The position numbers and the translations under genes are program-made. The notes beneath the pieces were generated by a model. The model searched no databases, was not told the DNA's origin, and was given only the letters and a program-made list of their open reading frames with translations. A stretch of DNA of 64,000 nucleotides, taken from NCBI GenBank assembly GCA_016184315.1, contig JACPCU010000009.1:13330-77329 (forward strand), read 5' to 3'. Shown in pieces: positions 6,484 through 41,458 of this stretch. Position 1 is the first letter of the stretch, and every line of letters begins with the position of its first letter. The DNA comes from Nitrososphaerota archaeon (lineage in GTDB: Archaea; Thermoproteota; Nitrososphaeria; Nitrososphaerales; JACQRY01).

Positions 6484-6586
6484 TTTTTAAACCTTGGTCA
6501 AAGAAGGAAAATATTTTGTTACTCATTGAATATCTTTTGTCCATGTCCATCATAGGAGAGCTCAGGCGCGGATACCCGAGAAACTG

Positions 6587-6945
6587 GTGTCGAAGGCTAA
6601 AGACATAATGTGGATCCAATCAGTTTACTATGGGAATAACCCGGATTTGGTGGCAAGTGTTAACTTTGATTCTCTAGTTCTGCAGGCTCACTACGAGCAG
6701 GTTCCTGCTAAGGGTTCGACTACTGTTCACAGACATGGCGAGACCATTGTCCAAATACTGGAAGGTCATGGTCATAGTGAGATCCATGGGCGATTGGTTG
6801 AATTGGGAACCTGGTGATTTAGTGCTTATCCCTGCTGGTGCGTGACATAAGCATTGGTGTCATGGCGATAAGCCGGTGAAGTTCTTGGCCATCAGCACTT
6901 CTAGGTTGCTGAGGCACTCTTGGGACGAGAAGTAACGGAGGAACG
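6587..6945 (+). pseudogene. cupin-domain gene disrupted by a frameshift (~6800-6817) and an in-frame TGA (6853-6855)
   Basis: Frame A gives HRHGETIVQILEGHGHSEIHGRLVELGTW*. The adjacent frame continues the cupin as EPGDLVLIPAGA*HKHWCHGDKPVKFLAIS, with the PxGxxH motif interrupted by TGA. Confidence 0.6.
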
Positions 6946-7130
6946 TGGCTACAAGACGTATGCGGAGCTGAAAGCCGAGTAGCCATAGGAAAGACTGGTT
7001 TTGCATGAATAGTGGTTTCTATCTGGAAAACCATGGATTTCTACTGTTTGGTAACTTGGATTGGTTTATTTGTTTGTAATCATAGTGTGGAGTTAATTTT
7101 ATATTAAACTTAGCATACAAAAACGTTGTA

Positions 7131-8360
7131 ATGGTCAACACCGTGACTGCCGCGTCTCTGATTGCTCTTATCGTCGCAGCTGCGTCATTTGGCTACGCTA
7201 GTTTTGCTGTTTCAGGAGAAGCAGGGCAGCTCAGAACCCAGATTAAGCAGATCGATCAGAACTTGGCAACGGTTCAGAAGGATATCGGTGAGTTGAAGAG
7301 CAGCCTCCAGAGGTCCTTGGAGGAGACTAGGAAGATAGCTGCTGAAAGAGAGGCGCTCATACAGCAGATAACGCCCTTCGATCCTGCTCTTGTGGCGGCT
7401 GCGATCAAGGAAGGTGGTCTTACTATCTACTCGGTCAGAGATCAGGAGGACATAGTGGTGCTGTCACAGGAATTTCAGAAGAAGTTTCCGGGCATAAAGG
7501 TGAGTTTCTTTAATGCTAGGGAGCTTGAGCTTCTGGCTAGGATCACTGCGGAAGCGAAGCAGTCTCAGTCCACTTGGGATATCTATGATGCTGGCGCTAG
7601 GGTTTTGGGTGCTGCTGCGAACATAGGTGCTACTCAACGTTACGTGTCTAAGCAGTATACTCCGGAGAACTTTCCTATTGTTGATCCTGATAGGTTCTTT
7701 TATGGTGCGACGATCCCGGTGATGATCTATAATCCTAAGCTGGTGAAGAAGAGTGACTTGGATGCGGTTAAGACGTGGGAGGATGTTCCTAAGCTGGCTG
7801 CTAAGTATCAGGGTAAGGTCCTTATGGATCATCCGACGCGTCTAGGTTCGCATACTCAGATTCTGGGTGAATTGAAGAGTTATTGGAAGGATGATTCGAG
7901 GTGGAGCAAGTATCTGGGCGAGCTGAAGGCTCTTGGCGCAAGGATGTTCAAGAGTACTGGTGAGATTGGGCGGCTCATTATTTCTGAGGAGGGCTCTATT
8001 GGCATAGTGGGCTTGCTGCACGATGTGTTGCAGGCTAGGGTCAGAGGCAGCCCCCTTGAATTCATGCCTGTGTCTCCTCTTGTGGTGCAGCCTTTTGGGG
8101 TTGTCATCTCCAAGAACGCGCCTCACCCCAATTCTGCGAAACTGTTGGTCGAGTTCATGCTGAGCCCTGACGGTCAAGAAGTCTTCTCCAGGGCTTTCCG
8201 TTCACCTATGAGGACTGGGTTTGTCTCCAAATCTTCTGGCAGCGTGCTCTTCCCGAATGTTCCTTCGAACCAGATAATTGGCACCTTGAATCAGGAGCTC
8301 CTCGCAGATCCGCAGGACTTCGCCAAAAGGTATCTTGAGCCTGTTTTCGGGCCTGCTTGA
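7131..8360 (+). CDS. membrane-anchored ABC-transporter solute-binding protein (family 1, iron(III)-type fold likely)
   Basis: 409 aa. It has an N-terminal TM helix, then a coiled-coil linker, then a periplasmic-binding-protein-like body (SVRDQEDIVVLSQEFQKKFPGIKV, TWDIYDAG). No permease or ATPase genes are adjacent. Confidence 0.55.
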   Translation: MVNTVTAASLIALIVAAASFGYASFAVSGEAGQLRTQIKQIDQNLATVQKDIGELKSSLQRSLEETRKIAAEREALIQQITPFDPALVAAAIKEGGLTIYSVRDQEDIVVLSQEFQKKFPGIKVSFFNARELELLARITAEAKQSQSTWDIYDAGARVLGAAANIGATQRYVSKQYTPENFPIVDPDRFFYGATIPVMIYNPKLVKKSDLDAVKTWEDVPKLAAKYQGKVLMDHPTRLGSHTQILGELKSYWKDDSRWSKYLGELKALGARMFKSTGEIGRLIISEEGSIGIVGLLHDVLQARVRGSPLEFMPVSPLVVQPFGVVISKNAPHPNSAKLLVEFMLSPDGQEVFSRAFRSPMRTGFVSKSSGSVLFPNVPSNQIIGTLNQELLADPQDFAKRYLEPVFGPA

Positions 8361-8648
8361 AGGATAGGTTCAGGTTCCTAGGTTGACCATCTAGGCTGTG
8401 AGCTTGTTCTACTGCATAGTCTGAGGGGGATGGATCATGTTCCGGGGATTGAGCCTCTTAACTCTGTTATGTGTAAGCGCTGTTGAATTCCCGGGGTTTG
8501 CCGGTTTTCACACGCTGGCAAAGAACTGGTCTAGGGGGGCTATATAATGCGGGCAAAGCGAAGACGCCCCTATGCTTGAGCAGAAACGTTGTTTTGGAAA
8601 CTAAGCTGTTGACATCAGCTAATAGTATTAGTATATCTCTAGTGCTAG

Positions 8649-9164
8649 ATGTTTCGGAGTTGGATGGCTCTGTCGGGGCAAGGAGAGTTCAGTTTGATGC
8701 CGGTGGGTGTTGTTAGGACCAAATCTTCTGATGAAGAGGTTCGTGGTTGGGATCATAGCTATGAGTCCATAGTTGAGATTCTTCCCGAGTTTGAGGGTGC
8801 TTTGGATGGGTTGGATGGTTATTCGCATCTCTTCGTGCTGTGTTTCTTGAACAGGGTTAGTCCTGAGGATAGGACGACTCTCAAAGTGAGGCCTAGAAGG
8901 CTTCTGCGTAAGGGTTTCAAGCTTGAGGATCTTCCTTTGAAGGGTGTCTTCGCGTTGGATTCGCCTGTTAGGCCGAATCCTATTGGGTTGAGTTTGGTGA
9001 AACTGGTTCGCAGGGAGGGTAGGATGCTGGTGGTTGAAGGCTTGGATTACTTTGATGGCACTCCTGTGCTGGATGTGAAGCCGTATCAGCCTGAGCATAG
9101 GGTTGAGGAGGTTAGTGTTCCGGAGTGGTATCAGGATCTGAGGGATAGGGCTGGTCGAATCTAG
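8649..9164 (+). CDS. trmO: TsaA/TrmO-family tRNA methyltransferase
   Basis: 171 aa. YSHLFVLCFLN, RPNPIGLSLVKLV and LDGTPVLDVKPY are hallmark segments of the TsaA/UPF0066 family. The start may be an internal Met. Confidence 0.75.
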   Translation: MFRSWMALSGQGEFSLMPVGVVRTKSSDEEVRGWDHSYESIVEILPEFEGALDGLDGYSHLFVLCFLNRVSPEDRTTLKVRPRRLLRKGFKLEDLPLKGVFALDSPVRPNPIGLSLVKLVRREGRMLVVEGLDYFDGTPVLDVKPYQPEHRVEEVSVPEWYQDLRDRAGRI

Positions 9165-9202
9165 CTGGTTGACATTGTTGTAGGTTGCTTCGGAATTGGA
9201 GG

Positions 9203-9353
9203 CGCCGGGAGTCGGATTCGAACCGACGAGTCCCCGAGGGGACACGGGCTGTCGCGCTTCTGATAAGCCTCAAGGCCCGCGCATTACTGTGGACAGTTGT
9301 TGTCCACTCTGCCGTCGGGAGAGTAAGGTTTTCCCCTTACGTCTGATCCCGGC
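9203..9353 (-). tRNA. tRNA-Ser(UGA) containing three introns (proposed)
   Basis: Minus-strand read: acceptor GCCGGGA/TCCCGGC, discriminator G, T-arm GTCGG-TTCGAAT-CCGAC. The long variable arm is GTCCCC-TC-GGGGAC (class II). The anticodon stem is CGGGC/GCCCG with loop CUUGAG...A. The D-arm is GCA-GAGTGGAC..AA-TGC. An 85-nt mature sequence plus inserts of 32, 16 and 18 nt equals the observed 151 nt. CCA is not encoded. Confidence 0.7.
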
Positions 9354-9891
9354 GGAAGTTTGTTCCCGGCGTCGAGGCTGCTCTTGATGCTGCGGGCTTA
9401 AACCTTATGCTTCTGCGCGCGGCCCAGTGGGATAAGATGTGTTCGTCGAGTCTACCTTCGACGAGCTTTAACGCGTCTCTGAGGCTTACCAGTTTTACTT
9501 CGGCGATCTCGTCGCCAGCTTTGAGTTCTCCGTCTAGTCGCTGTACTTCGAAGACGATCAGGAGGAAACTCTTCTTTGTCCGCTGTACACCGTGGGTCAT
9601 CAACACTTCGTTTACTCGGCCTTTGACGCCTGTCTCCTCGAGGACTTCGCGTAGGACTCCTTCCTCAGCGTTCTCTCCTGGCTCAACGAAGCCTCCGGGT
9701 AGCCCCCAGCCTCTCCTGTCTTCACGCTTGTTGCGTACCAAGACGATCTGTTTTCCGTATCTGAGTATGGCTGCAGCTACGGGCGCTGGGTTGGCCCAGT
9801 CGATGAAGCCGCAGTTGGTGCAGGCCATTCTTAGTTTGGAGTAGATTTCTTCTTGGTTGAGGGGTGTCGCGCATTCGGGACAGTACTTCAA
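9337..9891 (-). CDS. NUDIX hydrolase with an N-terminal zinc ribbon
   Basis: 184 aa. It has CPEC...CTNCG followed by the Nudix box GLPGGFVEPGENAEEGVLREVLEETG. The ORF tail overlaps the tRNA-Ser 5' end by 17 nt. Confidence 0.8.
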   Translation of the reverse strand: MKYCPECATPLNQEEIYSKLRMACTNCGFIDWANPAPVAAAILRYGKQIVLVRNKREDRRGWGLPGGFVEPGENAEEGVLREVLEETGVKGRVNEVLMTHGVQRTKKSFLLIVFEVQRLDGELKAGDEIAEVKLVSLRDALKLVEGRLDEHILSHWAARRSIRFKPAASRAASTPGTNFRRDQT

Positions 9892-10020
9892 AGCCTAGTC
9901 TTCGATGGCCTGTTTCACTGGCAGATTAATCATTCTATTGGTTGCTTGATTAATTGGTTGACGGAGGTTTGTTGTTGAGTATGTGTCTGGTGAACCTTAA
10001 ATAAAGTTGCAGGTAGATGG

Positions 10021-10425
10021 GTGGCCGTTATGAGCGACCCTGAGCTTGAAGATATTATGCGTCGTAAGATGCGTATGATGGCTAGTGGCAGTGTTAAGCC
10101 TGAGCCTGCGGGCAGCGTTGTGTTGACGGTTGCTAATTTTGATCAGGTGATAGGTGGTGATAAGCCTGTGATAGTGGATTTCTGGGCTGAGTGGTGTGGC
10201 CCCTGCCGATACATGCATCCTATCTTTGAGCATCTTGCTGCGAAATATGCGGGTAAAGTGGTCTTCGGCAGACTAAATGTGGATGATGGTCAGGAGATAG
10301 CTGGTCGCTACGAGGTCTACTCTATTCCCACTTTCATTATCTTCAAGAAGGGTGCTCAGCTGGACAGGGTTATCGGTGCTGTGGGAGAGCGGGGCTTAGA
10401 TTCTCTTATCGCCGGCTACTTGTAA
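10021..10425 (+). CDS. trxA: thioredoxin
   Basis: 134 aa. The WAEWCGPCR active site is present. The likely true start is the ATG at 10030. Confidence 0.85.
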   Translation: MAVMSDPELEDIMRRKMRMMASGSVKPEPAGSVVLTVANFDQVIGGDKPVIVDFWAEWCGPCRYMHPIFEHLAAKYAGKVVFGRLNVDDGQEIAGRYEVYSIPTFIIFKKGAQLDRVIGAVGERGLDSLIAGYL

Positions 10426-25409: not shown

Positions 25410-25587
25410 TGGGGCCGGTGGGATTTGAACCCACGATCGCCAGCGCACTGGGCGCACCGAGCGCACCCCAGGTTCACCGCGCAGATGCTCTGGTATCCTA
25501 TTGGCGGACTCACCTAGACCAAGTTATCCGTATGTTTCTGTCCGACCTAGATAGGTAGACAGTGGCATTACTCTAGACGACGGCCCC
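25410..25587 (-). tRNA. intron-containing tRNA, isotype unresolved (Pro-like acceptor; 178 nt)
   Basis: Minus-strand read: acceptor GGGGCCG/CGGCCCC, discriminator A, T-arm GTGGG-TTCAAAT-CCCAC. The D-arm GTCTAG...CTTGGTCTAGGT is split by a 49-nt insert. About 54 further extra nt lie between the D-arm and T-arm. A CUGGGGU heptamer is present, but I could not pair a clean anticodon stem. Confidence 0.6.
25573..25587. repeat. att core, tRNA-proximal copy (ctagacgacggcccc)
   Basis: Exact 15-mer shared with 34004-34018. It corresponds to tRNA positions 1-15. Confidence 0.65.
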
Positions 25588-25621
25588 CTAACATTACGCT
25601 TAGGAGGGATGGTTTAAGGGT

Positions 25622-26041
25622 TTAGGAAGGTCTTCCATTACGGAGAAATTGTAGCTTTTGTAGGTCTCTATAGGCCCCTCTTATGTCGCCCTTAAGTAAT
25701 CTTCCAGGCGCAAATATACGGAGTCGCTTCTTGTGCTTTTTTGATACGGGGAGTTTCTTTCGTACTACCGCATTATATTTTCTCATGATGCGTTCTTCAG
25801 CTTTGGTAACTTTTCCAGCATTTGTTCTGTTCGCCTTATCCGCCACAGGCTGTAGGGAGAAAACTGCATTTTGTAGTCTACCAGACGCAAGATGGATAAT
25901 AGCATCCTCAATATGACATTGTAAAGTGGTGTCTAGTAAATATCTGAACCGATTTAATAAGACGCCAAAAAAGTCGTGCGCTACGGGATCATGTTCAACA
26001 ACACATTTCTGACATTGTATACCTTTGGGAGCCAAGGGCAT
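25622..26041 (-). CDS. hypothetical protein (139 aa), element-borne
   Basis: ORF with an N-terminal CQKC...H.. cluster and a basic C-terminus. I recognise no family. Confidence 0.4.
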   Translation of the reverse strand: MPLAPKGIQCQKCVVEHDPVAHDFFGVLLNRFRYLLDTTLQCHIEDAIIHLASGRLQNAVFSLQPVADKANRTNAGKVTKAEERIMRKYNAVVRKKLPVSKKHKKRLRIFAPGRLLKGDIRGAYRDLQKLQFLRNGRPS

Positions 26042-26084
26042 CTTTTTGTGTCAGGAGGCTCGCCTTTATGGTTATTCCTCGTCT

Positions 26085-26366
26085 TTATCGATCGGCTGCC
26101 CCTTTTTTACCTTTAGATGTTCTATGACGTGCGGTGCGGGAGGCTTCACGAGGTTTAGGGGAGTTAGGTAAAGGTAGAGGCTTCGTTTTACCCACGTAGT
26201 GCCATCTGATACGAGTCGATTTGGCTTTAGACGGATCGTAAGAGTAGTGTGCTACGTACCTGTACTGGTATTCCTTCCCGTAATTATTGCGGACGGTCTT
26301 GGTCTGTATGCTGCCCTGCTCCCCGCATCGCGGGCATCTGATCGAGGCTTCTGCTTCCATGTCCAT
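26085..26366 (-). CDS. zinc-ribbon, basic-tailed small protein (93 aa)
   Basis: It has a CPRCGEQGS motif, then a beta-rich core and a lysine/arginine-rich tail. It is likely DNA-binding. Confidence 0.45.
   Translation of the reverse strand: MDMEAEASIRCPRCGEQGSIQTKTVRNNYGKEYQYRYVAHYSYDPSKAKSTRIRWHYVGKTKPLPLPNSPKPREASRTARHRTSKGKKGAADR
26163..26174. repeat. extra copy of the element motif gttaggtaaagg (inside the 93-aa ORF)
   Basis: Exact 12-mer shared with 26380-26391 and 31770-31781, and in inverted form with 26403-26414. Confidence 0.5.
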
Positions 26367-26379
26367 GTTCCCGCTGGTA

Positions 26380-26414
26380 GTTAGGTAAAGGAGGGTATTT
26401 AACCTTTACCTAAC
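26380..26414. promoter_or_regulatory. perfect 12-bp inverted repeat (gttaggtaaagg N11 cctttacctaac) in a divergent promoter region; putative operator
   Basis: The arms are 26380-26391 and 26403-26414. It lies between divergent ORFs 26085..26366(-) and 26426..26725(+). The AT-rich spacer is agggtatttaa. Confidence 0.55.
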
Positions 26415-26425
26415 TTTTATGGTAA

Positions 26426-26725
26426 ATGATCGTCAGAAAATCCGTCGGAGTATTGAGGGAGGTCACGCTCGAGCATAGTCCCTTTCTAGCCTCGTCCGTC
26501 GAGGGGATGGATATGGCAACGATAGAGGGCATAAGCTGGATGGTTATAGTGAAGAATCGAGGGCTTAGGACGACGCTCGGTGCCCCGCCTCTCGAGCGCT
26601 ACTGGTTCGGGGGAGATAAGGCGTTTAGGCAGGCTAACGATGTGTTTACCCATTTGAGCAGCGAGATGCTTAACAAAGTTATGGATACGGGGTTTCCGAT
26701 TAAGGTAGGTAAGGGTAAGGTATAG
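26426..26725 (+). CDS. hypothetical protein (99 aa), element-borne
   Basis: ORF only. It is divergent from the Zn-ribbon gene across the palindrome. Confidence 0.4.
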   Translation: MIVRKSVGVLREVTLEHSPFLASSVEGMDMATIEGISWMVIVKNRGLRTTLGAPPLERYWFGGDKAFRQANDVFTHLSSEMLNKVMDTGFPIKVGKGKV

Positions 26726-26981
26726 CTGGGTTAATACAAAGGGGTTTTGCTATTTACTACTACTACCCTTAAGCCTTAATAATATCTTCCGCTATTATAT
26801 TGATTGGAATAACTGTTCGCCGCCCTTAATTGGTGCGGCTTGCTGCCCGTTTCATCGGGTGGCGTTGTTGCGGCCTCATTCATGGGGATTCGTGACATTT
26901 TCTACCTTTAGGTCTACCTCCTGACGAGCCTATGTGATAGGCGAAACCATCGTATCATAATTGGATGGTCGAGGTATCATT

Positions 26982-27131
26982 ATGAAGTCAACTGTAATAC
27001 GGGCTTTTACTCTGCCTAGGGAGCTGGATGATGCCCTAAAAGCGTCGATTCCTAAAGGTGAGCGAAGTCGCGTTGTAAGTGAAGCGATCCGAGTAGCATT
27101 AATCACTAGCGGAGGTGAAGGCGGACGGTAG
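26982..27131 (+). CDS. ribbon-helix-helix (CopG/Arc-like) protein, 49 aa, not in the ORF track
   Basis: Hand translation gives MKSTVIRAFTLPRELDDALKASIPKGERSRVVSEAIRVALITSGGEGGR. It has the beta-strand/helix/helix pattern typical of RHH repressors. Confidence 0.55.
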   Translation: MKSTVIRAFTLPRELDDALKASIPKGERSRVVSEAIRVALITSGGEGGR

Positions 27132-27553
27132 GATTAGGGCTTACCCCCGAAGACGCAAGGGGATATCTAGATACCTTATCTTATATCAAGACGCATGGCC
27201 TCTTTACGCACGACAAGGAGCTTGCACTAATCGAGTCTGAGATCTTCCATGCGCCGAATGAGCTAAAGGATTTAGCTACGTACACCACTTCTCCCTCTGG
27301 AGGAGAGTCTAGGCGTTACGGTAGTTACAACGGCGTCCCCTCTGTACTCGTAACTGAAGTGAAGGTGGACGACGGTGGCAATCCTACCCTTATTCGTAAT
27401 CGAGTCGAGCCGTGGGCTGATCTTACGGATAGGGATGCTCGACGATTAACGTTTGCCATCAGGTCGCTTCTAGGAAGGTATCCTCTGGAAACGCGCACAA
27501 AGACTCTGTACCGCGACGATTTTGACCTTGCTGGCAGGCCTTTGCAGGGTTAA
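27119..27553 (+). CDS. hypothetical protein; frame open from 27119 but first canonical start is GTG 27359
   Basis: The open frame reads ...LTPEDARGYLDTLSYIKTHGLFTHDKELALIESEIFHAPNELKDL... with no ATG/GTG/TTG before 27359. It overlaps the RHH stop by 13 nt in the -1 frame. Confidence 0.35.
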   Translation, partial: RRTVGLGLTPEDARGYLDTLSYIKTHGLFTHDKELALIESEIFHAPNELKDLATYTTSPSGGESRRYGSYNGVPSVLVTEVKVDDGGNPTLIRNRVEPWADLTDRDARRLTFAIRSLLGRYPLETRTKTLYRDDFDLAGRPLQG

Positions 27554-27567
27554 GGGGTAGATTTACG

Positions 27568-28485
27568 ATGAGGAATTACTTAAAAGGTCAATCAGAGGTA
27601 TTTACGGAGGTCAAGGGCGATTCTAAGGGTGTAGATGAGGATATAACGATTAGAGGTGTCCTTTTAACGTTAGGGGCAAAAAATGCCAACGGTTGGGCTA
27701 TTAGGCCACAGGACGGGGATTATTTAATCGAGGCTCTGCGTGGCTTACCCCTCCGATCGACCCATAGCGAAGACCCTATGTCAACCTACGGTAAGATCAT
27801 CGATGCATGGCGAGAGGGAGATACCATCTTCTACCGAGCAAACGTATTCGGCAACGACAGTAAAGCATTAAGAATTATTCGTGAAGGTCTAGCGAAATCT
27901 GTTAGCATAGCAGTCGAGTTCAGTAAAACGGTCTGCAGCTCCTGCGGTAAGTTGGCTAGAGATAATCAGGAACCTAACCTCTTACAACACCTCTGTGAAA
28001 ACGCCCATGAATTGGTCATCGATCCTAAGCCGTATGAAGTAAGTCTCGTCTCATTTCCCGCATACAAGGAGTCATCCATTTCGGTGGCAGGTAAGAAGCA
28101 GCGTAGTCTAGTAAATCTACTCGATAGGCTCGATACGGTTACGAATGATTTACTTAGGAAGCGAAGGGAGGCGGACGGTAAGGGTAAACCTGAAACACTA
28201 CCCGATAGTCCTGAGGACGATCAGGACGATGCCCCCGTTACTCGTAAAGGTAAGAGTGGATCATCGTTGCTTGATAAGACTAACTGGAAACGTCCAAGGG
28301 AGGAGAAACCCGTTACGGTGGGGCCGACTCCCTCTATGATTAACATGCACAGTTTCAGGGAGGCCGAGTCGGCGTACAGGGCTAAGGAGATTTTAGAGAG
28401 CGTCGATATTTTCGGAAAAGAGAGAATACTCCTTGTTGACCCCCTTATGGCTGAACTGAGGAAGGTTAAGGCTAGGAAACAGTAA
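27568..28485 (+). CDS. HK97-family prohead (capsid maturation) serine protease-like protein with an acidic/basic C-terminal extension
   Basis: 305 aa. LPLRSTHSEDPMSTYGKII fits the His motif context, LAKSVSIAVEF fits the G-x-S-x-G-F-like Ser motif, and YEVSLVSFPAYKESS fits the E-v-S-l-V..PA motif. A CSSCGK...HLC insert lies between motifs. Confidence 0.6.
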   Translation: MRNYLKGQSEVFTEVKGDSKGVDEDITIRGVLLTLGAKNANGWAIRPQDGDYLIEALRGLPLRSTHSEDPMSTYGKIIDAWREGDTIFYRANVFGNDSKALRIIREGLAKSVSIAVEFSKTVCSSCGKLARDNQEPNLLQHLCENAHELVIDPKPYEVSLVSFPAYKESSISVAGKKQRSLVNLLDRLDTVTNDLLRKRREADGKGKPETLPDSPEDDQDDAPVTRKGKSGSSLLDKTNWKRPREEKPVTVGPTPSMINMHSFREAESAYRAKEILESVDIFGKERILLVDPLMAELRKVKARKQ

Positions 28486-28505
28486 ACGGGGGTGAAATAA
28501 GTAGA

Positions 28506-28721
28506 TTGGATACATTAAGCGGTTATCTCAAGGAATTCGAGATGCGTAAGGAACTGGAAACTCTTGCACGCAAAGGGCAGAAGCGGATCAGCCTACAGCC
28601 CAGTTCCCCAGAGTTCATAGACGAAATGCAGGGTTTAACAGAGGATATGAGGCGTAGAATGAGGCAGGGGTTAGACGGAGCCTTCGCTGAGTTGAACAGG
28701 GTAGCTGAACCCTTTGATTAG
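28506..28721 (+). CDS. hypothetical helical protein (71 aa)
   Basis: ORF directly downstream of the protease. It is charged and helical. Confidence 0.35.
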   Translation: MDTLSGYLKEFEMRKELETLARKGQKRISLQPSSPEFIDEMQGLTEDMRRRMRQGLDGAFAELNRVAEPFD

Positions 28722-28848
28722 TGACATAGGCAGATGGCTATCTGGGCTGGCAAAGTCTAGGAGCCATTACGCCTGCCCAGCATGCGGCAAAACGTTCTCC
28801 CTCGAAGTACAGTACGTTCAGCATAAAAGGGATTTTCCTACGCACTAA
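28714..28848 (+). CDS. possible tiny C2H2 zinc-finger ORF (44 aa, TTG start)
   Basis: Hand translation gives ...SRSHYACPACGKTFSLEVQYVQHKRDFPTH*. The start codon is uncertain. Confidence 0.25.
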   Translation: MISDIGRWLSGLAKSRSHYACPACGKTFSLEVQYVQHKRDFPTH

Positions 28849-28953
28849 TCAGCGGAGCATCGAACGTATATCGTTACATGGTAGTAGCAGATGCTTACTA
28901 GGTAGTAAATCTAACCCCAGTTAAGTCTTATATAGTCGTATATAAACTAATAG

Positions 28954-28970
28954 CTAATCGACGGGTTTCT
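28954..28970. repeat. 17-bp direct repeat flanking the IS, left copy (ctaatcgacgggtttct)
   Basis: Identical to 30015-30031. Confidence 0.75.
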
Positions 28971-30014
28971 ATCTTATCCCTAAATCATTTCCTCCCCTAC
29001 TCAAGAGACTTCACAAGCTGATCAGATACGTTAGACTGAGCGAGTTTTGGATCAGCCTATGGAGGAGGCATGGACATGCTGTGCTGGATGAGAAGCAGGT
29101 CGAGTGGATCATCAAAGCCAAGATCCAGGGGAAGAGGAACATGGACATCGCCGACGCTATGGGGATATCCTCCAGAAGGGTCAGACAGCTCTACTCCCAA
29201 TACAGGAAGACGGGAGCAATACCAGTCCTCAGGAAGCCTGGTAGGCATAGGGCTCCTGAGGTCACTGTGTATGAGAGGGAGGTCATCAAGGAGGCTTATG
29301 GGAGGTTCAGGATGTGCGCCTGCTACCTTGAGAAGATACTCTCAGCTCATGGGGTACGTATCAACCATAAGAGGATTCACAGGGTGTTGAGGGAGGAGGG
29401 ATATGCATTGAATGAGCCTAGGAAGCAGCGTAGGAGGAAGTGGATACGCTACGAGAGGGAGCACTCCAATTCACTCTGGCATACCGATTGGCACCGGATC
29501 AAGGATCCCAGATGGAGGGGCCAGTGGCTCATAGCCTACGAGGATGACGCATCCAGGTTCATCACGGGCTTTGGGGTATATCCAACCTTGACATCAAGAT
29601 CCTCGGTGGAGGTGTTCGACAGGGCTGTGAGGAGGTATGGTAAGCCGAGATCCATACTCTCAGACCATGGGACAACATTCTACGCGGTGGAGGCAGAGTC
29701 TAGGGAGAAGGGGTTGACGGAGTTCGAAAAGTATCTGTTGAAGAACAAGATCAGGTTCATCATGGGTAGAGTGGATCATCCTCAAACCAACGGTAAGATA
29801 GAGAAGTTCTTCGACATCTTCGAGAAGAAGGTCAGATACTTCCAGTCAGTAGAGGAGTTCATGGAGTGGTACAACTGCGAGAGACCCCATGGAGCATTCG
29901 ACCTGTCAAAGCTGGAGACACCAGTACAGATCTTCTACAAGAGGATGGAGGACCGAGAGCAGCTAACCGACCCGGACACAATACCTAGGGAGGAAATGAT
30001 TCTGTGATAAAACA
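28971..30014 (+). mobile_element. IS481-like insertion sequence (1044 bp) with imperfect ~22-bp terminal inverted repeats
   Basis: IRL atcttatccctaaatcatttcc matches the reverse complement of 29992-30014 (tgttttatcacagaatcatttcc) at 17 of 22 positions. It has a single DDE ORF whose stop lies inside IRR, and it is flanked by 17-bp direct repeats. Confidence 0.7.
29081..30007 (+). CDS. DDE (rve/integrase-core) transposase with N-terminal HTH
   Basis: 308 aa. The HTH is MDIADAMGISSRRVRQLY. The catalytic D is in WHTDW, the second D in ILSDHG, and the E in HPQTNGKIEKF. The C-terminal YNCERPHGA is typical of IS481/IS3-type rve domains. Confidence 0.85.
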   Translation: MLDEKQVEWIIKAKIQGKRNMDIADAMGISSRRVRQLYSQYRKTGAIPVLRKPGRHRAPEVTVYEREVIKEAYGRFRMCACYLEKILSAHGVRINHKRIHRVLREEGYALNEPRKQRRRKWIRYEREHSNSLWHTDWHRIKDPRWRGQWLIAYEDDASRFITGFGVYPTLTSRSSVEVFDRAVRRYGKPRSILSDHGTTFYAVEAESREKGLTEFEKYLLKNKIRFIMGRVDHPQTNGKIEKFFDIFEKKVRYFQSVEEFMEWYNCERPHGAFDLSKLETPVQIFYKRMEDREQLTDPDTIPREEMIL

Positions 30015-30031
30015 CTAATCGACGGGTTTCT
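30015..30031. repeat. 17-bp direct repeat flanking the IS, right copy
   Basis: Identical to 28954-28970. Confidence 0.75.
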
Positions 30032-30136
30032 CTAAGGCCTGTCGTACGTCCTTCCATCGGGGAGGTAGCTCCTCCCCTACTAGCTCTTAACGGGCTGGAT
30101 GGAGAAGGCGGTAAATCTTAGGGAGCTAGTAGAAAA

Positions 30137-31144
30137 ATGATAAAGCCAGAAGGGCGAAACAATGATAGTCATTCCCTAGCGGATAAGATAACCCCTAAGC
30201 GGTTTAACCAGTTAATTAAGAAGTTATCCTCAGATTGTATCGAGCTATGGGAAAAATATTACCCGCCCCTTAAGGATGATACTGGCGCCCCTGTTCCTAC
30301 CAAACTCAGTGCCCGTATCCAAGGGGAGATCGGGGAAGACGCTGTCTATGAGTATGCTCTACTACCCTTTCATAAAGCATCGAGCATCGTTCGCAACGAC
30401 TGTACCATCAGGCGAGCCAAGGGAGGCGCTGATTTCTACGTTAATATTGGAGGCAAGATGGTTTTGGTAGAGGTAAAGAATCTCAACCCAGATTCATACA
30501 TCACACCAGCTTGGGCAGAAAGCCACATAATCAGCCGTTTCGAGATTAGTCGCAACCTACCAGACGTTGCGGAGCGCATAGTTATCATAATAGGAGCGAA
30601 CAACACGAGGTGGTATCCAGTAGAAAAAGCCCTACTAAAACATAGCATAAAACTACTACATTTACCCTGCCTACCTAGTATAAATGATACTAATGAGGAG
30701 CGTAAGAGGATCATACAGTCCTTCCGTGAGAGGTATTATGTTATAGTAGCTCATCTACTTCATAACCACGTGTATTTTACTAGTAGCACTAAGGTTATAG
30801 ACGATGTTCTTAGGGTATCTAACATTAGCTTAAGGCCCTGCGATAAGGGTTTACCTACCGGTCGCGGGCCCCCAGATGCCTTTTTACCGTTTGGATCGGA
30901 TGTAGCTGCCCAGCGTAAGCTACTGGAGGGGTATATGCAAATGCCTCAGATGCATGTACGCGTTACCAGCGGTTTTTTCGATGCATATTTACGAGCATCC
31001 ATGCATTCTTTCGGCTGGAGCGATGGGGGACTGGCCTCCTTATACGGCTCTCTCATTAGGAAAACATCCATGAGAGGAGCCTTTCCTAATTATCCTACCG
31101 CTCCTACAGTTCCTACGAGATGCATTACGCTTGCAGGGGTCTAA
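30137..31144 (+). CDS. PD-(D/E)xK-like nuclease-fold protein (N-terminal ~200 aa); C-terminal half of doubtful coding quality
   Basis: GEIGEDAVYEYAL...GGADFYVNIGGKMVLVEVKN gives a D...E-x-K arrangement like restriction-endonuclease-fold proteins. The C-terminal 130 aa has no recognisable features. Confidence 0.4.
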   Translation: MIKPEGRNNDSHSLADKITPKRFNQLIKKLSSDCIELWEKYYPPLKDDTGAPVPTKLSARIQGEIGEDAVYEYALLPFHKASSIVRNDCTIRRAKGGADFYVNIGGKMVLVEVKNLNPDSYITPAWAESHIISRFEISRNLPDVAERIVIIIGANNTRWYPVEKALLKHSIKLLHLPCLPSINDTNEERKRIIQSFRERYYVIVAHLLHNHVYFTSSTKVIDDVLRVSNISLRPCDKGLPTGRGPPDAFLPFGSDVAAQRKLLEGYMQMPQMHVRVTSGFFDAYLRASMHSFGWSDGGLASLYGSLIRKTSMRGAFPNYPTAPTVPTRCITLAGV

Positions 31145-31579
31145 CAGCCTCTGGAGAAGGGGACGATGGGGTGTCTCTGCCTCCTTGGGATACCCCGGAT
31201 CCCCTTTAATGCTACTCCATGAGTAGAGGTAGGGCAGGTCGTTAGCCTACACCTGTTAAAATGCTCGCTGGAAGAATTAACCCCTCGAAAGGTGGGCACC
31301 CTACCTATTTTTCATGCTTACGAGAGCTGAGCTGGTCGATCTTATGTTCTTCCATCCAGCCCTAGCCCGATGAGTAGGGTTCCCCGCGGCTACATGGGCT
31401 TCACCGTGGGGAGCGTTATGATTACAGAGAGGTGATTACCTACGGCAGTTAAGAAGGTTAAGGGCGGACGTAAGCCTACGAAGGTTAAGAAGCGTAAGAC
31501 CACGAAACGATAGTAAGACGGATCATAGATAGATGGTCTCTGTGTGGCATCCCCCATTTTTATTTAACATCATTACGAT

Positions 31580-31774
31580 ATGAAGCCTATTAATCCCCCT
31601 GTGGGAATTGACATAGATACTGTAGCTGGGCAGGAATGGCTCCTGCACCGTATAGCTGAGATACTGGCTACGGAGCATGATCTTACTACCCTAGACATGA
31701 AACGCCTCCGCCTCCTGAAGCAGGTAACGAGAGAGCGATTAAGGGTTATGCTGGCCAGCGGATCAGTTAGTTAG
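31580..31774 (+). CDS. hypothetical protein (64 aa)
   Basis: ORF only. Its 3' end carries the element motif. Confidence 0.3.
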   Translation: MKPINPPVGIDIDTVAGQEWLLHRIAEILATEHDLTTLDMKRLRLLKQVTRERLRVMLASGSVS

Positions 31775-31781
31775 GTAAAGG
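31770..31781. repeat. copy of the element motif gttaggtaaagg just upstream of ORF 31789
   Basis: The 15-mer tagttaggtaaagga is shared with 26377-26391. Confidence 0.5.
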
Positions 31782-31788
31782 ATTATTC

Positions 31789-32190
31789 ATGAGTGAAGAT
31801 GAGCCAAGCCCTACACGACAATGGGTAACTAAGGCCCTTAAAGCTAAAGGATGGACTGAGCAACAGATCGCGGATAGCTACAAGCCCGGCAGCGATAAGA
31901 TAGCCCTTATGAATGAGGCAAGATTACGTAAGAAACAGGAACGCCAGCAAGCCCTAGAGAAGATCGACAGCTACGAAGGGCTACTCAACATGACAAAGCT
32001 ACTCCTACAGGACGTATTACGAGAGCTCAGCAAAAATAAGAGCATCAGCCAAGCCGATAAGCGGAAGCTACGGTATTACAAGATAGCCTGCTCCCTAGTA
32101 AACAGCGCGAAGCAAACATCCGCGCTGCGCAACCAAGAGGCTCTAAGGAAACGGTTAGACGCGTTAGAGCAGCGCATAGAAAAAGCCTAG
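31789..32190 (+). CDS. hypothetical coiled-coil protein (133 aa)
   Basis: Charged helical repeats (KKQERQQALEKIDSYEGLL..., RKRLDALEQRIEKA). Confidence 0.4.
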   Translation: MSEDEPSPTRQWVTKALKAKGWTEQQIADSYKPGSDKIALMNEARLRKKQERQQALEKIDSYEGLLNMTKLLLQDVLRELSKNKSISQADKRKLRYYKIACSLVNSAKQTSALRNQEALRKRLDALEQRIEKA

Positions 32191-32263
32191 ACCAAACTTA
32201 CGTAATTAAGCGTGAATAAAGTTACTTAACTGGCTTACTACCATACCTTAGGGGGTAAGCAAT

Positions 32264-32557
32264 ATGGGAGGTGCGTTTTCGGCGCTGACGACCCTGATCC
32301 TCCTAATTAGTGGAATAGTCATGGTTCTACAGGGTGACTGGCTCTTAGGATGGATGCTAGTGATAGGGGGCACCATAGTAGGCGCAATCGGGAAGGCTTC
32401 GCGATCTAAACCTTCGCGATCGAGAGGCACGTCGCCGCCTTCTGCCGGGAAGTCGAGAACATCTCAAGAATGGCTTGAGGCTCTAAGGCTTAGACTTGCG
32501 AAAGGCGAGATAACAAAGGAGCAGTATGAAGAGTTAAGGAAAACGCTTAGTGAATGA
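32264..32557 (+). CDS. small membrane protein with a C-terminal SHOCT-like domain
   Basis: 97 aa. It has two TM segments, then EWLEALRLRLAKGEITKEQYEELRKTL, which fits the SHOCT consensus. Confidence 0.5.
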   Translation: MGGAFSALTTLILLISGIVMVLQGDWLLGWMLVIGGTIVGAIGKASRSKPSRSRGTSPPSAGKSRTSQEWLEALRLRLAKGEITKEQYEELRKTLSE

Positions 32558-32563
32558 GCTTTC

Positions 32564-33952
32564 CTAAGAGCGTATGATCTCCACTACTGCCTTATCCGAG
32601 TTCAACGCGCTTACGAAGCGAGCCTTCCCGCCGTTCACGAGGCGCTTCGCCTCCTTCACGGAGACTATCTTTTGCCTACTTACAGGGACTGTATGATGAT
32701 TAGCCCCCTTGCCTACCCGCAAATTTGTTGCTTCGACTTCCCGCTCCACTTGCTCTGAGACACGGTGCGCGATCCCGTATCGGAACACTACTTCACGCCG
32801 ATACTTCCCAAGCCTACGCCAATACTCCCCTAACTCTTCTACCGTCATCTTATCCAGCTCTTCGTTATCCTTCTGAAACTCTTCAAATAGAGGTGTGTTA
32901 GCTTCGGTATATTCGGCGAGCTCCGCACTGAGGATTTGACAGTTCATTTGCAGCGCCCTTCGATAAATCAACGCTTCAACATCCTGCCGTGATATCTCCG
33001 GAGGGGAAGTTAGGATCGTTAACCGCTTCTCCGCCTTAAGATACTCTTGCTTCAACTGATCATCCGTTAATCTAAGATACGCAGCGTCTAAACCGAACTT
33101 ATGCCCCATGAATAGCTCCACAATGCCCCGATCGACCCCGGCGGATAGCATCTGTGAGAAAAAGTATTTCCTGAAACTGTGAGGGTGGATCTGCTGTCTT
33201 TTACTGTCGGCATCCATTTTTCCCAACAGCCCGGCTTTCTCCACAGCCCTCATAACCTGCCGATAAGACGCATCAGTGGTCAACCTTACCTTAGGGTTGC
33301 CTTCATTAAAAAATACGTACTGATCTAACTGCTTGATGCGGTCGCCGAGCCACTCCTTAAGAAAGCCACTTGTCTCGTCTGTAACATATACAGTTCTACC
33401 CTTCCTTGTCTTCGTAAACCTAGCTTGCAGCCTGATGCTAGTCGGCTTGGAGGTAAAGTCGATGTCGCCCACCCTTAAGCCGGTAGCTTCGCCGAGACGC
33501 ATACCGCTACTCGCTAGGAGGGTAACAAGAGCCTTAGCCCGCAGACCGCATCTTAGAACTATACTCCGTAGCTCCTCCTGTGTAGGCGCTCTATCCATGC
33601 TTACCTCGTAGTTCGCTGGCAACACAATTCGGTTCTTTAGTCGTGCCAGATCCAGCGGAATCCCTTCGCTCAGCAAGAACCCCTTAACTGCCCCATAATA
33701 CGTCCTGATAGTCTTCGGCGACTTACCCTTTCCAACCAAATAGCCGATGTATTTATCCAAAGCTTCGTAAGGATCGAGCTTCCCATCTCGGATAACCTCG
33801 ATCACCACATCCACATCCTTGTAACCAAGGCTTCGGCCCCAAACCCTCAGCGCCCCCTCATATGTCTCAGCCGTCTTTTCGCTACGCCTCGCCTTACGCT
33901 CCCGGTAATCCTCCGCTCCCAAACCCCACTTAAACCTCCTAACTAGCATCAA
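32564..33952 (-). CDS. tyrosine recombinase (phage/plasmid-type integrase), intact
   Basis: 462 aa. It has an N-terminal SAM-like domain. Catalytic residues are SSGMRLGEATGLRVGDI (Arg), HPHSFRKYF (HxxR) and FMGHKFGLDAAYL (His...Tyr). The likely true start is the ATG at 33949. Confidence 0.85.
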   Translation of the reverse strand: MMLVRRFKWGLGAEDYRERKARRSEKTAETYEGALRVWGRSLGYKDVDVVIEVIRDGKLDPYEALDKYIGYLVGKGKSPKTIRTYYGAVKGFLLSEGIPLDLARLKNRIVLPANYEVSMDRAPTQEELRSIVLRCGLRAKALVTLLASSGMRLGEATGLRVGDIDFTSKPTSIRLQARFTKTRKGRTVYVTDETSGFLKEWLGDRIKQLDQYVFFNEGNPKVRLTTDASYRQVMRAVEKAGLLGKMDADSKRQQIHPHSFRKYFFSQMLSAGVDRGIVELFMGHKFGLDAAYLRLTDDQLKQEYLKAEKRLTILTSPPEISRQDVEALIYRRALQMNCQILSAELAEYTEANTPLFEEFQKDNEELDKMTVEELGEYWRRLGKYRREVVFRYGIAHRVSEQVEREVEATNLRVGKGANHHTVPVSRQKIVSVKEAKRLVNGGKARFVSALNSDKAVVEIIRS

Positions 33953-33961
33953 CTACCGTAT

Positions 33962-33969
33962 ATTTAAAT
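33962..33969 (-). promoter_or_regulatory. TATA-like box (ATTTAAAT) ~15-20 nt upstream of the integrase start
   Basis: It is the only strongly AT-rich octamer between the att core and the integrase ATG. This spacing would imply a near-leaderless transcript. Confidence 0.35.
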
Positions 33970-34003
33970 GCTAGGTAGGATATTCTTATCCCTCTAAACC
34001 AAG

Positions 34004-34018
34004 CTAGACGACGGCCCC
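34004..34018. repeat. att core, integrase-proximal copy (ctagacgacggcccc)
   Basis: Exact 15-mer shared with 25573-25587. On the minus strand it is followed by D-loop-like CTTGGTTTAGAGG, and preceded by an AT-rich promoter-like flank (attaata ~35 nt upstream). Confidence 0.65.
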
Positions 34019-34070
34019 GCTTCATTCACTCGGTCTCTAAATTCGGTATTAATGCATAGCGGGGGTTGAT

Positions 34071-40534: not shown

Positions 40535-41458
40535 TTACCAGTCCTCTGGGTAAGGTATGTCGAAAGCCATCTGATCAGTAGCAGCCATAACCTTTGGGTG
40601 AACCTCCGCCGCCTGAAACAGCAGTGGGGAGACATCAGTGTACCTAGCGCTGAAATGGGTGAGGACAAGGAGACTCGCTCCAGCGTTTCTAGCTAACATG
40701 GCTGCTTCTCTAGCGGTTGCATGCAGGTTTTCCACTGCTCGCTCTGCTTGGTCGTCGCCATAGGTTGAGTCGAAGATCAGCACGTCGCAGTCCTTGAAGA
40801 ATCTTGTCAGGCGGGAATTAGGTCTGGTGTCTCCTGAGACCCCTATCCTTCTGCCTCTCCTCTTGGGGCCCAAGACTTGTCTGGGAAGAATCTTCTTGTC
40901 TCCCACGATTACTGGCTGCCCATGTTGCAGCCTAGACCAAAGTTCTCCTTCCGGAACCCCCAGTCTAATCGCGTTCTCCCTGTGGAACGCCCCCGGCCTG
41001 TCACGCTCCTCGATGCAATAAGCATACGAGTCAACTTCATGTTCAGACCTAGCAGCTTTAACCACGTATTCTTCCTCATCAACAATTACCCCTGAATACG
41101 CCTTGGTGAACCTGACTGGGAATGTGAGCACAAAGCCTAGGATTCGCCTCACCTCTTTCACCAGTTCCCAGACCCGCTCAGGACCGTATATGTCTAGGGA
41201 CTTGTCTCTACCAGTCATAGACATGGATTGTAGGAGACCTAAGAGGCCTACAGTATGGTCTCCGTGTATGTGGGTGATAAAGATCTTCATTCTACGGTTG
41301 AGCCCCAAGCCTGCTTTGGCTATGGCTTGCTGAACCCCTTCACCCGCATCAAAGAGAAGCAACTCGTCTCCCCGCTGTATTGCTGTTGCACTGAGACCTC
41401 TGCTTCCAGTGGGGGTTGCAGCTGACGTGCCTAGAAAGACAATTCGAAGATGAGTCAA
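40535..41458 (-). CDS. rnz: ribonuclease Z (tRNA 3' endonuclease)
   Basis: 307 aa. The metallo-beta-lactamase motif is ITHIHGDH, and LVLTHFSARY lies at the C-terminus. Confidence 0.85.
   Translation of the reverse strand: MTHLRIVFLGTSAATPTGSRGLSATAIQRGDELLLFDAGEGVQQAIAKAGLGLNRRMKIFITHIHGDHTVGLLGLLQSMSMTGRDKSLDIYGPERVWELVKEVRRILGFVLTFPVRFTKAYSGVIVDEEEYVVKAARSEHEVDSYAYCIEERDRPGAFHRENAIRLGVPEGELWSRLQHGQPVIVGDKKILPRQVLGPKRRGRRIGVSGDTRPNSRLTRFFKDCDVLIFDSTYGDDQAERAVENLHATAREAAMLARNAGASLLVLTHFSARYTDVSPLLFQAAEVHPKVMAATDQMAFDIPYPEDW

Follow-up and report, generated by a model that had tools for sequence, protein, structure and literature searches.

Thaumarchaeal genomes harbour cryptic integrated elements (CIEs; Krupovic et al. 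2019, PMC6563490), which are small, integrated in tRNA genes, equipped with a tyrosine integrase and a short attachment (att) site, and loaded mostly with orphan cargo, and which have no capsid, conjugation or recognisable replication module. In a survey of Thaumarchaeota, 38 of 39 tRNA integrations were located at the 3' end of the gene, and only CalSub-E1 at the 5' end (PMC6563490). At the tRNA-Thr(GGU) locus of Caldiarchaeum subterraneum, recombination of an intron-bearing attP with an intron-less attB has been proposed (PMC3293823), and non-canonical tRNA introns have been argued to arise from mobile-element integration (Sugahara 2012, PMC3293823); as related in PMC4090602, Randau and Soll (2008) argued that tRNA introns protect genes from integration. 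Here, we describe an element at a tRNA-Pro(GGG) gene in a stretch of 64,000 nucleotides (nt) from contig JACPCU010000009.1 of Nitrososphaerota archaeon GCA_016184315.1; this whole stretch is referred to as the window, and all positions are those of the window. CIEs are the nearest described category, and the element shares with them all the features listed above. It differs from them in that its whole integrase family targets the 5'/D-loop region, whereas the integrations in the CIE survey were mostly at 3' ends, and in that it has a protease gene of tailed-virus type and, probably, a tRNA exon and intron. Like the Caldiarchaeum locus, it shows an uninterrupted 5' piece of the tRNA remaining on the promoter side, inserted DNA ending in a copy of the 5' part of the tRNA that is followed by a new intron, and what appear to be intron-plus and intron-minus alleles in the population, and the same attP/attB mechanism is proposed for both. 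In contrast, the Caldiarchaeum insertion is 1.9 kb long, has only a predicted "recombinase" of uncertain type and carries its intron at 24/25, whereas the window element has an integrase that clearly belongs to PF00589, 8.5 kb of cargo, its intron at 15/16 and a testable target common to its whole family.

We consider it probable that the tRNA-Pro(GGG) gene of the window has received a site-specific integrative element at its 5' end, in the D-loop region, and that this element is moved by its own intact integrase. With a little less assurance, we favour a reading in which the promoter, exon 1 and intron 1 of the present gene were brought by the element and the crossover lies in the hexamer CTTGGT. 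Since the locus offers a defined integrase, a 6-bp candidate crossover, a population apparently with both alleles and dozens of related elements at the same 21-mer, the ideas of intron origin and intron protection become directly testable. An earlier interpretation of the window from its letters alone (hereafter, the sequence-only reading) had recognised the element, and this finding is real and its first anatomy largely right; its boundary logic calls for revision, and its choice between a provirus and a satellite is not supported in the form given. The main interest of the locus is in attachment-site biology, rather than in a "virus without a capsid".

Direct Repeats and the Interrupted tRNA-Pro(GGG) Gene

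Direct repeats derived from the tRNA stand at both ends of the element, and the integrase lies beside one of them (Table 1). The 15-mer CTAGACGACGGCCCC, which on the minus strand reads GGGGCCGTCGTCTAG and corresponds to tRNA nt 1-15, occurs exactly twice in the window, even with two mismatches allowed; shuffled sequences gave a mean of 0.11 matches, and none of 100 shuffles gave two. The repeat is thus unique to the two sites and, as the sequence-only reading had stated, it is exact and bounds 8,446 bp. On the integrase side, the 15-mer continues into CTTGGT, giving a contiguous tRNA nt 1-21, and on the tRNA side it is followed by a 49-nt insert and only then by CTTGGT. The native promoter flank placed at the right end by the same reading was recognised there as an AT-rich stretch, and the TATA-like box that it had noted between the right repeat and the integrase start is present as TTTAAATATA at 33959-33968. 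At the other end, the sequence CTTAAAC, located 25-31 nt upstream of the element-side exon 1, is a candidate replacement promoter.

ARAGORN found no tRNA at this site, either in the unspliced window or in 34 related loci; it misses the tRNA-Pro(GGG) gene because the gene has four introns and is thus 178 nt long. When four inserts of 49, 16, 17 and 20 nt, after tRNA positions 15, about 21, 30 and 39, respectively, were removed in silico, the remaining 76 nt formed a flawless cloverleaf, which ARAGORN called tRNA-Pro(ggg). Single-deletion scans with ARAGORN gave many contradictory calls and were replaced by an Rfam alignment and a comparison with the tRNA-Pro genes of a related locus, L074 (Ga0315298_1013544, a 9,138-bp contig). 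The exon sequence is that of the two tRNA-Pro genes in L074, which are mostly free of these inserts, and this validates the exon parse. The gene apparently has four inserts, three of which occur in both population alleles; a review of archaeal tRNA genes mentions up to three introns per gene (PMC4090602).

The 49-nt insert was folded with RNAfold, which predicted a relaxed bulge-helix-bulge (BHB) structure consisting of a 4-bp helix G10UCU13/GGAU, 3-nt bulges AG↓A and AA↓C, and an inner 3-bp helix GUA/UAC, with both splice sites at equivalent positions in the two bulges. On this fold, the insert is a predicted tRNA intron of the BHB type, in its relaxed HBh' form. In one tRNA-Pro gene of L074 (#1), position 15/16 is likewise occupied by an intron, of 31 nt, which ends in GGAGAA and thus shares a GGA(U/G)AA ending with intron 1 of the window. 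The motifs CTACCTA and ATACGG, common to the insert and the integrase-proximal arm, were considered as integrase arm sites and rejected, as such sharing is at chance level.

Population Alleles at the tRNA-Pro Locus

We examined the Logan assemblies of seven runs of the same study (SRR12113390, -401, -418, -422, -426, -428 and -432), in which the population showed 99.4-100% identity to the window. The occupied junctions were read straight through in two of the seven runs, and contigs ended there in the others. Logan contigs are built with k = 31. Because the positions of the contig ends (Table 1) match k = 31 signatures, we regard these ends as graph forks at the two outer edges of CTTGGT. None of the contig ends was located at the edges of the 15-mers (25587/25588 and 34003/34004) or at their 29-nt offsets. 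The contig-fork method is supported by the insertion sequence (IS) within the element, whose ends can be recovered in this way too: from the contig breaks (28998 and 29985), a repeat of 28969-30014 is deduced, as compared with 28971-30014 from the inverted and direct repeats.

One contig, L220, extended beyond the fork and read ...ACCAAG+CTAG directly from exon 2, in place of intron 1. The forks together with L220 therefore point to an alternative allele, which would read flank-GGGGCCGTCGTCTAG-CTTGGT-CTAGG..., with 25524-34003 as the variable unit. This allele would be a tRNA-Pro gene that lacks the 49-nt insert and, on the simplest view, the element as well. The integrase-borne insertion at a tRNA 5' end that had been proposed for this locus is supported, and the contig data shift its boundaries, as the variable segment is bounded by CTTGGT (25518-25523 and 33998-34003) and not by the 15-mers.

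The arrangement at L074 is similar. Its host tRNA-Pro gene is split, with exon 1 and CTTGGT located ~8 kb from the part containing nt 16-76; the acceptor strands of the two halves match each other, and the intervening DNA encodes an integrase of the same family, 64 nt from the junction. CTTGGT is the sole sequence common to the two junctions, and hence their only direct repeat. When the junctions were joined, the deduced attP was CATTATCATAA-CTTGGT-TTATCATGATG, in which a 6-bp spacer is flanked by a 9/11 inverted repeat; core sites of tyrosine recombinases usually have this form. The L074 element also carries a complete tRNA-Pro(GGG) gene with a 31-nt intron at 15/16, and this second gene may compensate for the disrupted one.

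Proposed Mechanism and the Position of the Crossover

We propose that strand exchange would occur inside CTTGGT (tRNA nt 16-21). The circular element would carry, upstream of CTTGGT at its integrase-distal end, the TATA-like CTTAAAC, tRNA nt 1-15 and the 49-nt BHB spacer, so that insertion would sever the resident gene from its native promoter and exon 1. Insertion into an intron-less gene would at once rebuild an expressible gene with one more intron. The intron-less empty site would read flank-GGGGCCGTCGTCTAGCTTGGT-CTAGGTGAGTCC, the circle with exon 1 and the intron would read ...ACATACGGATAA-CTTGGT-TTAGAGGGATAAG, and reads joining ...GAATGAAGCGGGGCCGTCGTCTAGCTTGGT to CTAGGTGAG are expected.

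Several observations weigh against this mechanism. The alternative allele is deduced from contig ends and four extra bases, and no contig spans it; it could instead belong to a strain with a different element, and its background of single-nucleotide polymorphisms differs slightly (99.7-99.95% identity). No contig spans an empty site or a circular junction. The excised circular junction, a search for which the sequence-only reading had suggested, was not found: IMG/VR gave 0 matches to either predicted circular (attP) junction, and the assemblies of the seven Logan samples show only integrated junctions. Metagenomes of the Joint Genome Institute gave 0 matches to an empty-site pattern in which intron 1 is retained, the intron-less empty site not having been searched for. 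The 49-nt insert has only chance-level 7- and 8-mers in common with the rest of the element. Its splicing is a prediction from the fold. Most of the cargo is without homologues, which limits judgement of the function and autonomy of the element.

The foremost alternative, which we regard as possible and yet unlikely, is that the 15-bp repeat, or a part of tRNA nt 1-15, serves as the recombination core, and that the resident tRNA-Pro gene already had the 49-nt intron. The attP would then be the contiguous 21-mer, and the intron-less allele would represent a different strain; the empty site would read flank-GGGGCCGTCGTCTAG-AGTAATGCC, with the intron and without the element, and the circle would read ...GTAATGTTAG-GGGGCCGTCGTCTAG-CTTGGTTTAGAGG, i.e., ...GCGTAATGTTAG-GGGGCCGTCGTCTAGCTTGGT-TTAGAGG with a contiguous 21-mer. 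Repeat identity would cease at position 15 because the resident gene already had an intron there, and the exact 15-bp repeat does stop at the intron boundary. A contiguous 21-mer lies beside the integrase in all related elements, and the native-looking tRNA-Pro of L074, whose exon 1 (GGGGTCG) fits its own 3' acceptor strand, has a 15/16 intron. The att sites of Thaumarchaeota are short (median 17 bp; PMC6563490). Two further observations speak for this alternative and against a crossover in CTTGGT: in the related locus L083, the junction coincides exactly with tRNA position 15/16 and leads directly into the integrase open reading frame (ORF), and the contiguous 21-mer followed by TTAGAG has a slightly better inverted symmetry than GGATAA-CTTGGT-TTAGAG. 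However, this explanation requires two independent differences, the intron and the element, at one locus between strains that are 99.7-99.95% identical, and it meets with no contig end of the seven samples at a 15-mer edge or offset, whereas six contig ends fit the CTTGGT forks. We therefore prefer the reading in which the element brings promoter, exon 1 and intron 1 and recombines within CTTGGT.

The Integrase and Its Family

The sequence-only reading had described an intact 462-amino-acid (aa) tyrosine integrase starting 52 nt inside the right repeat, and this description is correct: the protein scores 88.4 bits against PF00589 (cut-off 27.1), and R152, K181, H258, R261, H284 and Y292, as well as Y304, are invariant in an alignment of 18 sequences. 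Its domain score and its R...K...HxxR...H/W...Y set are those of a tyrosine recombinase, as judged from the sequence. The ORF is uninterrupted and the att site is located outside it, so that the gene is not split by integration, and we assign the predicted enzyme to the pNOB8-type, non-partitioning (non-suicidal), XerA-like recombinases, with which it shares the intact gene after integration, the external att site and the conserved R-K-HxxR-H-Y set. Its best NCBIfam match is archaeal XerA (1.4e-31), although with a score below the equivalog cut-off (110 versus 220 bits). Unlike those recombinases, it has the 5' end of the tRNA as its target instead of the 3' end, and it carries a C-terminal extension of ~130 aa (aa about 330-462; 32564-32960). 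The extension is absent from most relatives, which are 340-390 aa long, and P0007 (437 aa) is the one aligned sequence with a loosely similar extension.

We found 61 related proteins, with 36-54% identity over the first two thirds, and a scan of metagenomes for the integrase yielded 78 loci. The contig starts no more than 450 nt upstream of the integrase in 36 of the 50 loci with a full N-terminus; assemblies therefore break at the attachment site. The family is widespread in peat, soil and groundwater metagenomes, and its genes are always located beside tRNA 5' ends, with cargo that differs for each member. Targeting of the tRNA 5' end is no rarity in Thaumarchaeota; one large integrase family does so as a rule. 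Two layouts occur. In the first, a complete tRNA and the integrase are divergent, and the tRNA 5' end directly adjoins the integrase; two loci of this layout at other tRNAs, L050 and L066, have a 20-25-bp repeat over tRNA nt -3 to 22. In the other layout, which includes the window, the integrase comes after a promoter flank and a 5' tRNA fragment, and the exact 21-mer GGGGCCGTCGTCTAGCTTGGT was found upstream of seven related integrases. We regard it as possible, but hold it only tentatively, that elements of this integrase family create tRNA introns, by a crossover in the D-loop hexamer (nt 16-21) and delivery of a promoter, exon 1 and a BHB spacer; every integration would then convert an intron-less tRNA gene into one with an intron, and excision at the other repeat could remove or capture an intron. 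If this is true, the family would provide a live and testable origin for the non-canonical tRNA introns abundant in Thaumarchaeota and Crenarchaeota, by a mechanism so far proposed from a single Caldiarchaeum locus.

In the first about 250 nt of L069, L070, L071, L083 and L087, the same host promoter flank was observed (...aaaaggctattat...gtgcccgagcgta). This flank with its tRNA-Pro 5' fragment leads into five different elements, and that tRNA is therefore an integration hot spot of a freshwater or peat thaumarchaeal population. Another related element at a tRNA-Pro 5' fragment (L045/L052; Ga0315314_1000806, 4655-10413) contains PAPS-reductase-like, HATPase_c and DUF5131/radical-SAM genes, suggesting defence-type cargo in other family members.

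The Capsid Maturation Protease

The HK97-type prohead protease announced by the sequence-only reading was confirmed by its match to PHROG 80, its His/Ser pair, its fold and its tailed-virus relatives. The core of the 305-aa protein (aa about 25-175) contains H66, S113 and a CxxC...HxC insertion, and is followed by a helical, scaffold-like C-terminal tail. A HMMER search of 1.8 billion representative proteins gave 91 relatives, aligned over aa 25-175. S113 is invariant in both alignments that were made, and H66 is invariant among the closest relatives and conserved in at least 90% of the sequences of a 36-sequence alignment; C123, C126, H141 and C143 are likewise invariant among the closest relatives. 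The AlphaFold 2 model has a pLDDT (predicted local distance difference test) above 90 in the core, and Foldseek matched the fold with a probability of 1.0 to herpesvirus proteases (assemblins) and T4 gp21; in BFVD, 227 matches were obtained at E <= 0.001, and the top ones are named prohead proteases. The match to Pfam Peptidase_S78 was below the cut-off (14.6 versus 21 bits) and covered only 21 aa, and six of the 36 aligned relatives match PF04586, with E-values up to 3e-5. In IMG/VR, 76 viral contigs encode relatives with 27-36% identity, in the gene order large terminase (TerL)-portal-...-protease-scaffold-major capsid protein (MCP), and 70 of them have an MCP gene. The window protease, unlike these relatives between portal and scaffold/MCP genes, stands alone and is not part of a head module.

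As compared with HK97 gp4 and other Peptidase_S78 enzymes, including T4 gp21, the window protease is alike in its fold, its His/Ser pair in conserved motifs and its C-terminal helical tail, and differs in belonging to a divergent clade with a zinc-ribbon-like insertion and in being encoded without any capsid gene. This insertion (27934-28000, aa 123-143) is invariant in this clade of prohead proteases and lies inside the assemblin fold; to our knowledge, no such insertion in an assemblin fold has been described earlier. In the public annotation (HYU39_02265, 235 aa), the protein starts at M71 and lacks the N-terminal 70 aa, including the catalytic His66. The 305-aa start is favoured, as alignments with the relatives begin at aa about 25 and the form listed in the Logan gene table is that of 305 aa.

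The relationships of the protein indicate that it is virus-derived, acquired from a tailed archaeal virus. Most likely, it is either a passenger captured not long ago or a protein taken up into procapsids when a tailed virus infects. A role in such procapsids is plausible, given that the catalytic pair and the C-terminal helices are preserved. A lone, intact capsid protease with a scaffold-like tail would be a lead to elements that parasitise or block tailed archaeal viruses, none of which has been described.

What Kind of Element

The most fitting name for the element is that of a cryptic integrative element in which a single gene is virus-derived; it is no demonstrable provirus or satellite. 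We use this label because no member of the integrase family has virion genes and no viral contig with the protease has the integrase: TerL, portal and capsid genes were found in none of about 80 loci with related integrases, and the window-type integrase in none of the 76 protease-bearing viral contigs, within the fetched stretch of up to 10 kb on each side. The window proteins were searched against Pfam, PHROGs, NCBIfam and PADLOC, and none of these searches detected a Rep protein, primase, capsid, portal or terminase, in agreement with the sequence-only reading. Its conclusion, that the element is a reduced provirus or a helper-dependent satellite, is not supported as stated, since it rests on a single gene.

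The element may live as a satellite on a tailed thaumarchaeal virus, or act as an island against it, its protease being loaded into helper procapsids so that the 8.5-kb element is packaged or helper assembly is spoiled; we consider this improbable. Its small size, its integrase, the divergent regulator pair with a putative operator and the lack of replication and capsid genes would fit such an island, as would the protease, whose catalytic pair and C-terminal helices are kept and align with viral relatives. Phage satellites (PICI, cf-PICI and P4) and the archaeal pSSVx and pSSVi are likewise small integrase islands with a regulatory switch and an incomplete morphogenetic set, but the window element, unlike them, has no packaging, capsid-size-redirecting or replication genes and no known helper. 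The family searches found none of the phage satellite genes (small terminase subunit TerS, Ppi, Cpm, Sid-like; replication module), and the single virus-related gene is accompanied by no TerS, pac/cos, capsid-size or primase-type genes, no PADLOC match, and no helper virus within the window. Moreover, the known archaeal satellites (pSSVx/pSSVi) parasitise spindle-shaped rather than tailed viruses, and an archaeal satellite of a tailed virus is so far undescribed (preprint 10.1101/2025.02.15.638363).

Still a shade less probable is a remnant of a tailed (Caudoviricetes) provirus, in which deletions took the terminase, portal, capsid and tail genes and spared the integrase, the regulators and the protease. 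The protease is of a viral type that has an MCP gene for company in most related viral contigs, and thaumarchaeal tailed proviruses with S78 proteases are known (PMC6563490). However, when TerL, portal, scaffold and MCP of the protease's viral relatives were compared with the element by tblastn, no pseudogene trace was found at E < 1, and in the 64-kb window the sole match was a chance-level one to TerL near 45.1 kb (E = 0.65). The genes by which a Caudoviricetes provirus is recognised (MCP, portal and large terminase) are thus missing, none of the integrase-family loci is a provirus, and no viral contig with the protease has this integrase within the fetched stretch. The intact ends and integrase and the full-length protease fit a working small element better than decay.

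Finally, a chance repeat among ordinary chromosomal genes beside a tRNA is effectively refuted, for although some exact 15-bp repeat is not rare in 64 kb (about two are expected by our estimate), this one matches tRNA nt 1-15 base for base and lies next to an integrase, related integrases have the same 21-mer beside them, the population is polymorphic at exactly this segment, and the cargo genes have no homologues in related genomes.

Other Cargo, Insertion Sequence and Host Flanks

The remaining features are listed in Table 1. The divergent pair of small ORFs around a perfect palindrome, pointed out by the sequence-only reading, was found as described (26085-26366 on the minus and 26426-26725 on the plus strand). 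The 93-aa protein of this pair also matched the NCBIfam UBP nucleoid-associated protein (4e-6, below the cut-off) and the pARN4 protein 9efd (1.4e-3); it is a zinc-ribbon protein, of a kind that archaeal plasmids and viruses are known to encode, and is probably a DNA-binding regulator, and the 13-nt inverted repeat is a probable operator. Three other calls of that reading are weakly supported: the ribbon-helix-helix protein gave only a weak match (E = 0.05), the zinc-finger ORF only a weak C2H2 match (E about 2e-3), and the SHOCT membrane protein a match of 9e-5, below the Pfam cut-off. The 335-aa ORF, a putative PD-(D/E)xK nuclease by its motif, matched only itself among 5.8 billion proteins and had no family match, and a sequence search of the PDB gave nothing meaningful; its AlphaFold 2 model, made without an alignment, has a pLDDT of 35 and was unusable. 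An encapsulin-like or MCP role was considered for this ORF and found no supporting evidence. When every cargo protein was compared with all 220 fetched loci by tblastn, only the integrase, the protease and the transposase were matched, and PADLOC detected no defence system.

The one IS that had been noted belongs to the IS481 family, with a DDE transposase, inverted repeats and a target duplication, and it is a later insertion into the element. The transposase matched NF033577 (4e-50; 170.9 bits, below the equivalog cut-off of 224) and rve (2.9e-10). The inverted repeats (28974-28996 and 29988-30010) are 23 nt long and 87% complementary, and the IS is flanked by a perfect 17-bp direct repeat (28954-28970 and 30015-30031), which is unusually long. 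The IS is multi-copy in the population, as seen in contig breaks in four samples, and single-copy within the window.

Table 1. Positions of the element, its repeats and genes, and the contig ends in the Logan assemblies.
Feature	Position	Strand	Basis or remark
tRNA-Pro(GGG) gene, 178 nt	25410..25587	-	Rfam RF00005, 30.3 bits versus gathering score 29
Exons of tRNA-Pro(GGG)	25587-25573, 25523-25515, 25498-25490, 25472-25464, 25443-25410	-	in-silico splicing
CTTGGT, left copy (tRNA nt 16-21), probable crossover (overlap) region	25518..25523	-	contig forks, L074
Integrated element by population polymorphism, 8,480 bp including one CTTGGT	25524..34003		contig ends
Predicted 49-nt intron 1 at tRNA position 15/16	25524..25572	-	RNAfold local structure; contig forks; L074 intron at same position
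Left 15-mer, tRNA exon 1	25573..25587	-	element-borne in the preferred model
TATA-like CTTAAAC, candidate replacement promoter for rebuilt tRNA	25612..25618	-	suggested by the sequence
Orphan, 139 aa	25622..26041	-	no family match; same ORF in Logan gene tables
Zinc-ribbon protein, 93 aa	26085..26366	-	PSV_ORF131-like, 7e-4
Perfect 13-nt inverted repeat AGTTAGGTAAAGG/CCTTTACCTAACT, 11-nt spacer with TATTTAA	26379..26415		divergent promoter region
Orphan, 99 aa, divergent from zinc-ribbon gene	26426..26725	+	ORF also in Logan contigs
Possible ribbon-helix-helix protein, 56 aa	26961..27131	+	RHH_1, E = 0.05
HK97-type capsid maturation (prohead) serine protease, 305 aa	27568..28485	+	PHROG 80, 4e-6; fold; gene order of relatives
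Two small ORFs: 71 aa, helical; 44 aa, C2H2-like finger	28506..28848	+	weak Pfam matches
IS481-family IS, secondary insertion	28971..30014	+	transposase 29081-30007
Orphan, 335 aa, D...ExK motif	30137..31144	+	nuclease call from the motif only
Three small ORFs: 64 aa; 133 aa, charged, helical; 97 aa, membrane, SHOCT-like C-terminus	31580..32557	+	all in Logan contigs
Tyrosine integrase, 462 aa (461 aa from ATG at 33949)	32564..33952	-	PF00589, 6e-25; PHROG 1, 2e-34
CTTGGT, right copy	33998..34003	-	joined to 15-mer as contiguous 21-mer GGGGCCGTCGTCTAGCTTGGT beside native promoter flank
Right 15-mer, host-derived tRNA nt 1-15	34004..34018	-	AT-rich native promoter flank at 34019-34060
Contig end, L210	33998		last base of CTTGGT
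Contig starts, L222 and L223	34027		33998+29
Contig ends, L215 and L216	25523		first base of exon 2
Contig end, L213	25494		25523-29
Contig end, L220	4 nt beyond 25523		CTAG where window has TTAT

The host is a groundwater metagenome-assembled genome of the Nitrososphaerota (Thaumarchaeota) with HYU39_ locus tags, and is of the non-ammonia-oxidiser type. The G+C content of the element is 48.6%, as compared with 47-50% in the flanks. A Pfam-type family search verified the flanking genes that had been named from the letters, namely HflX, the asparaginase-like gene and the CCA enzyme, as well as a RIO-like gene. The nearest species representatives have an HflX identity of at most 73% (tblastn). 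A scan of genome contigs with HflX for an empty site returned 44 loci at this level of identity without synteny, none of which has the tRNA, the asparaginase-like gene or the CCA enzyme nearby, so that they are uninformative on the empty site. In the chromosomal flank, a 307-aa gene of the metallo-beta-lactamase fold (window about 40535-41458; L209, 4203-5126) carries the Pfam tag Anti-Pycsar_Apyc1, and its product is probably a housekeeping enzyme of the RNase Z type and not an anti-defence protein.

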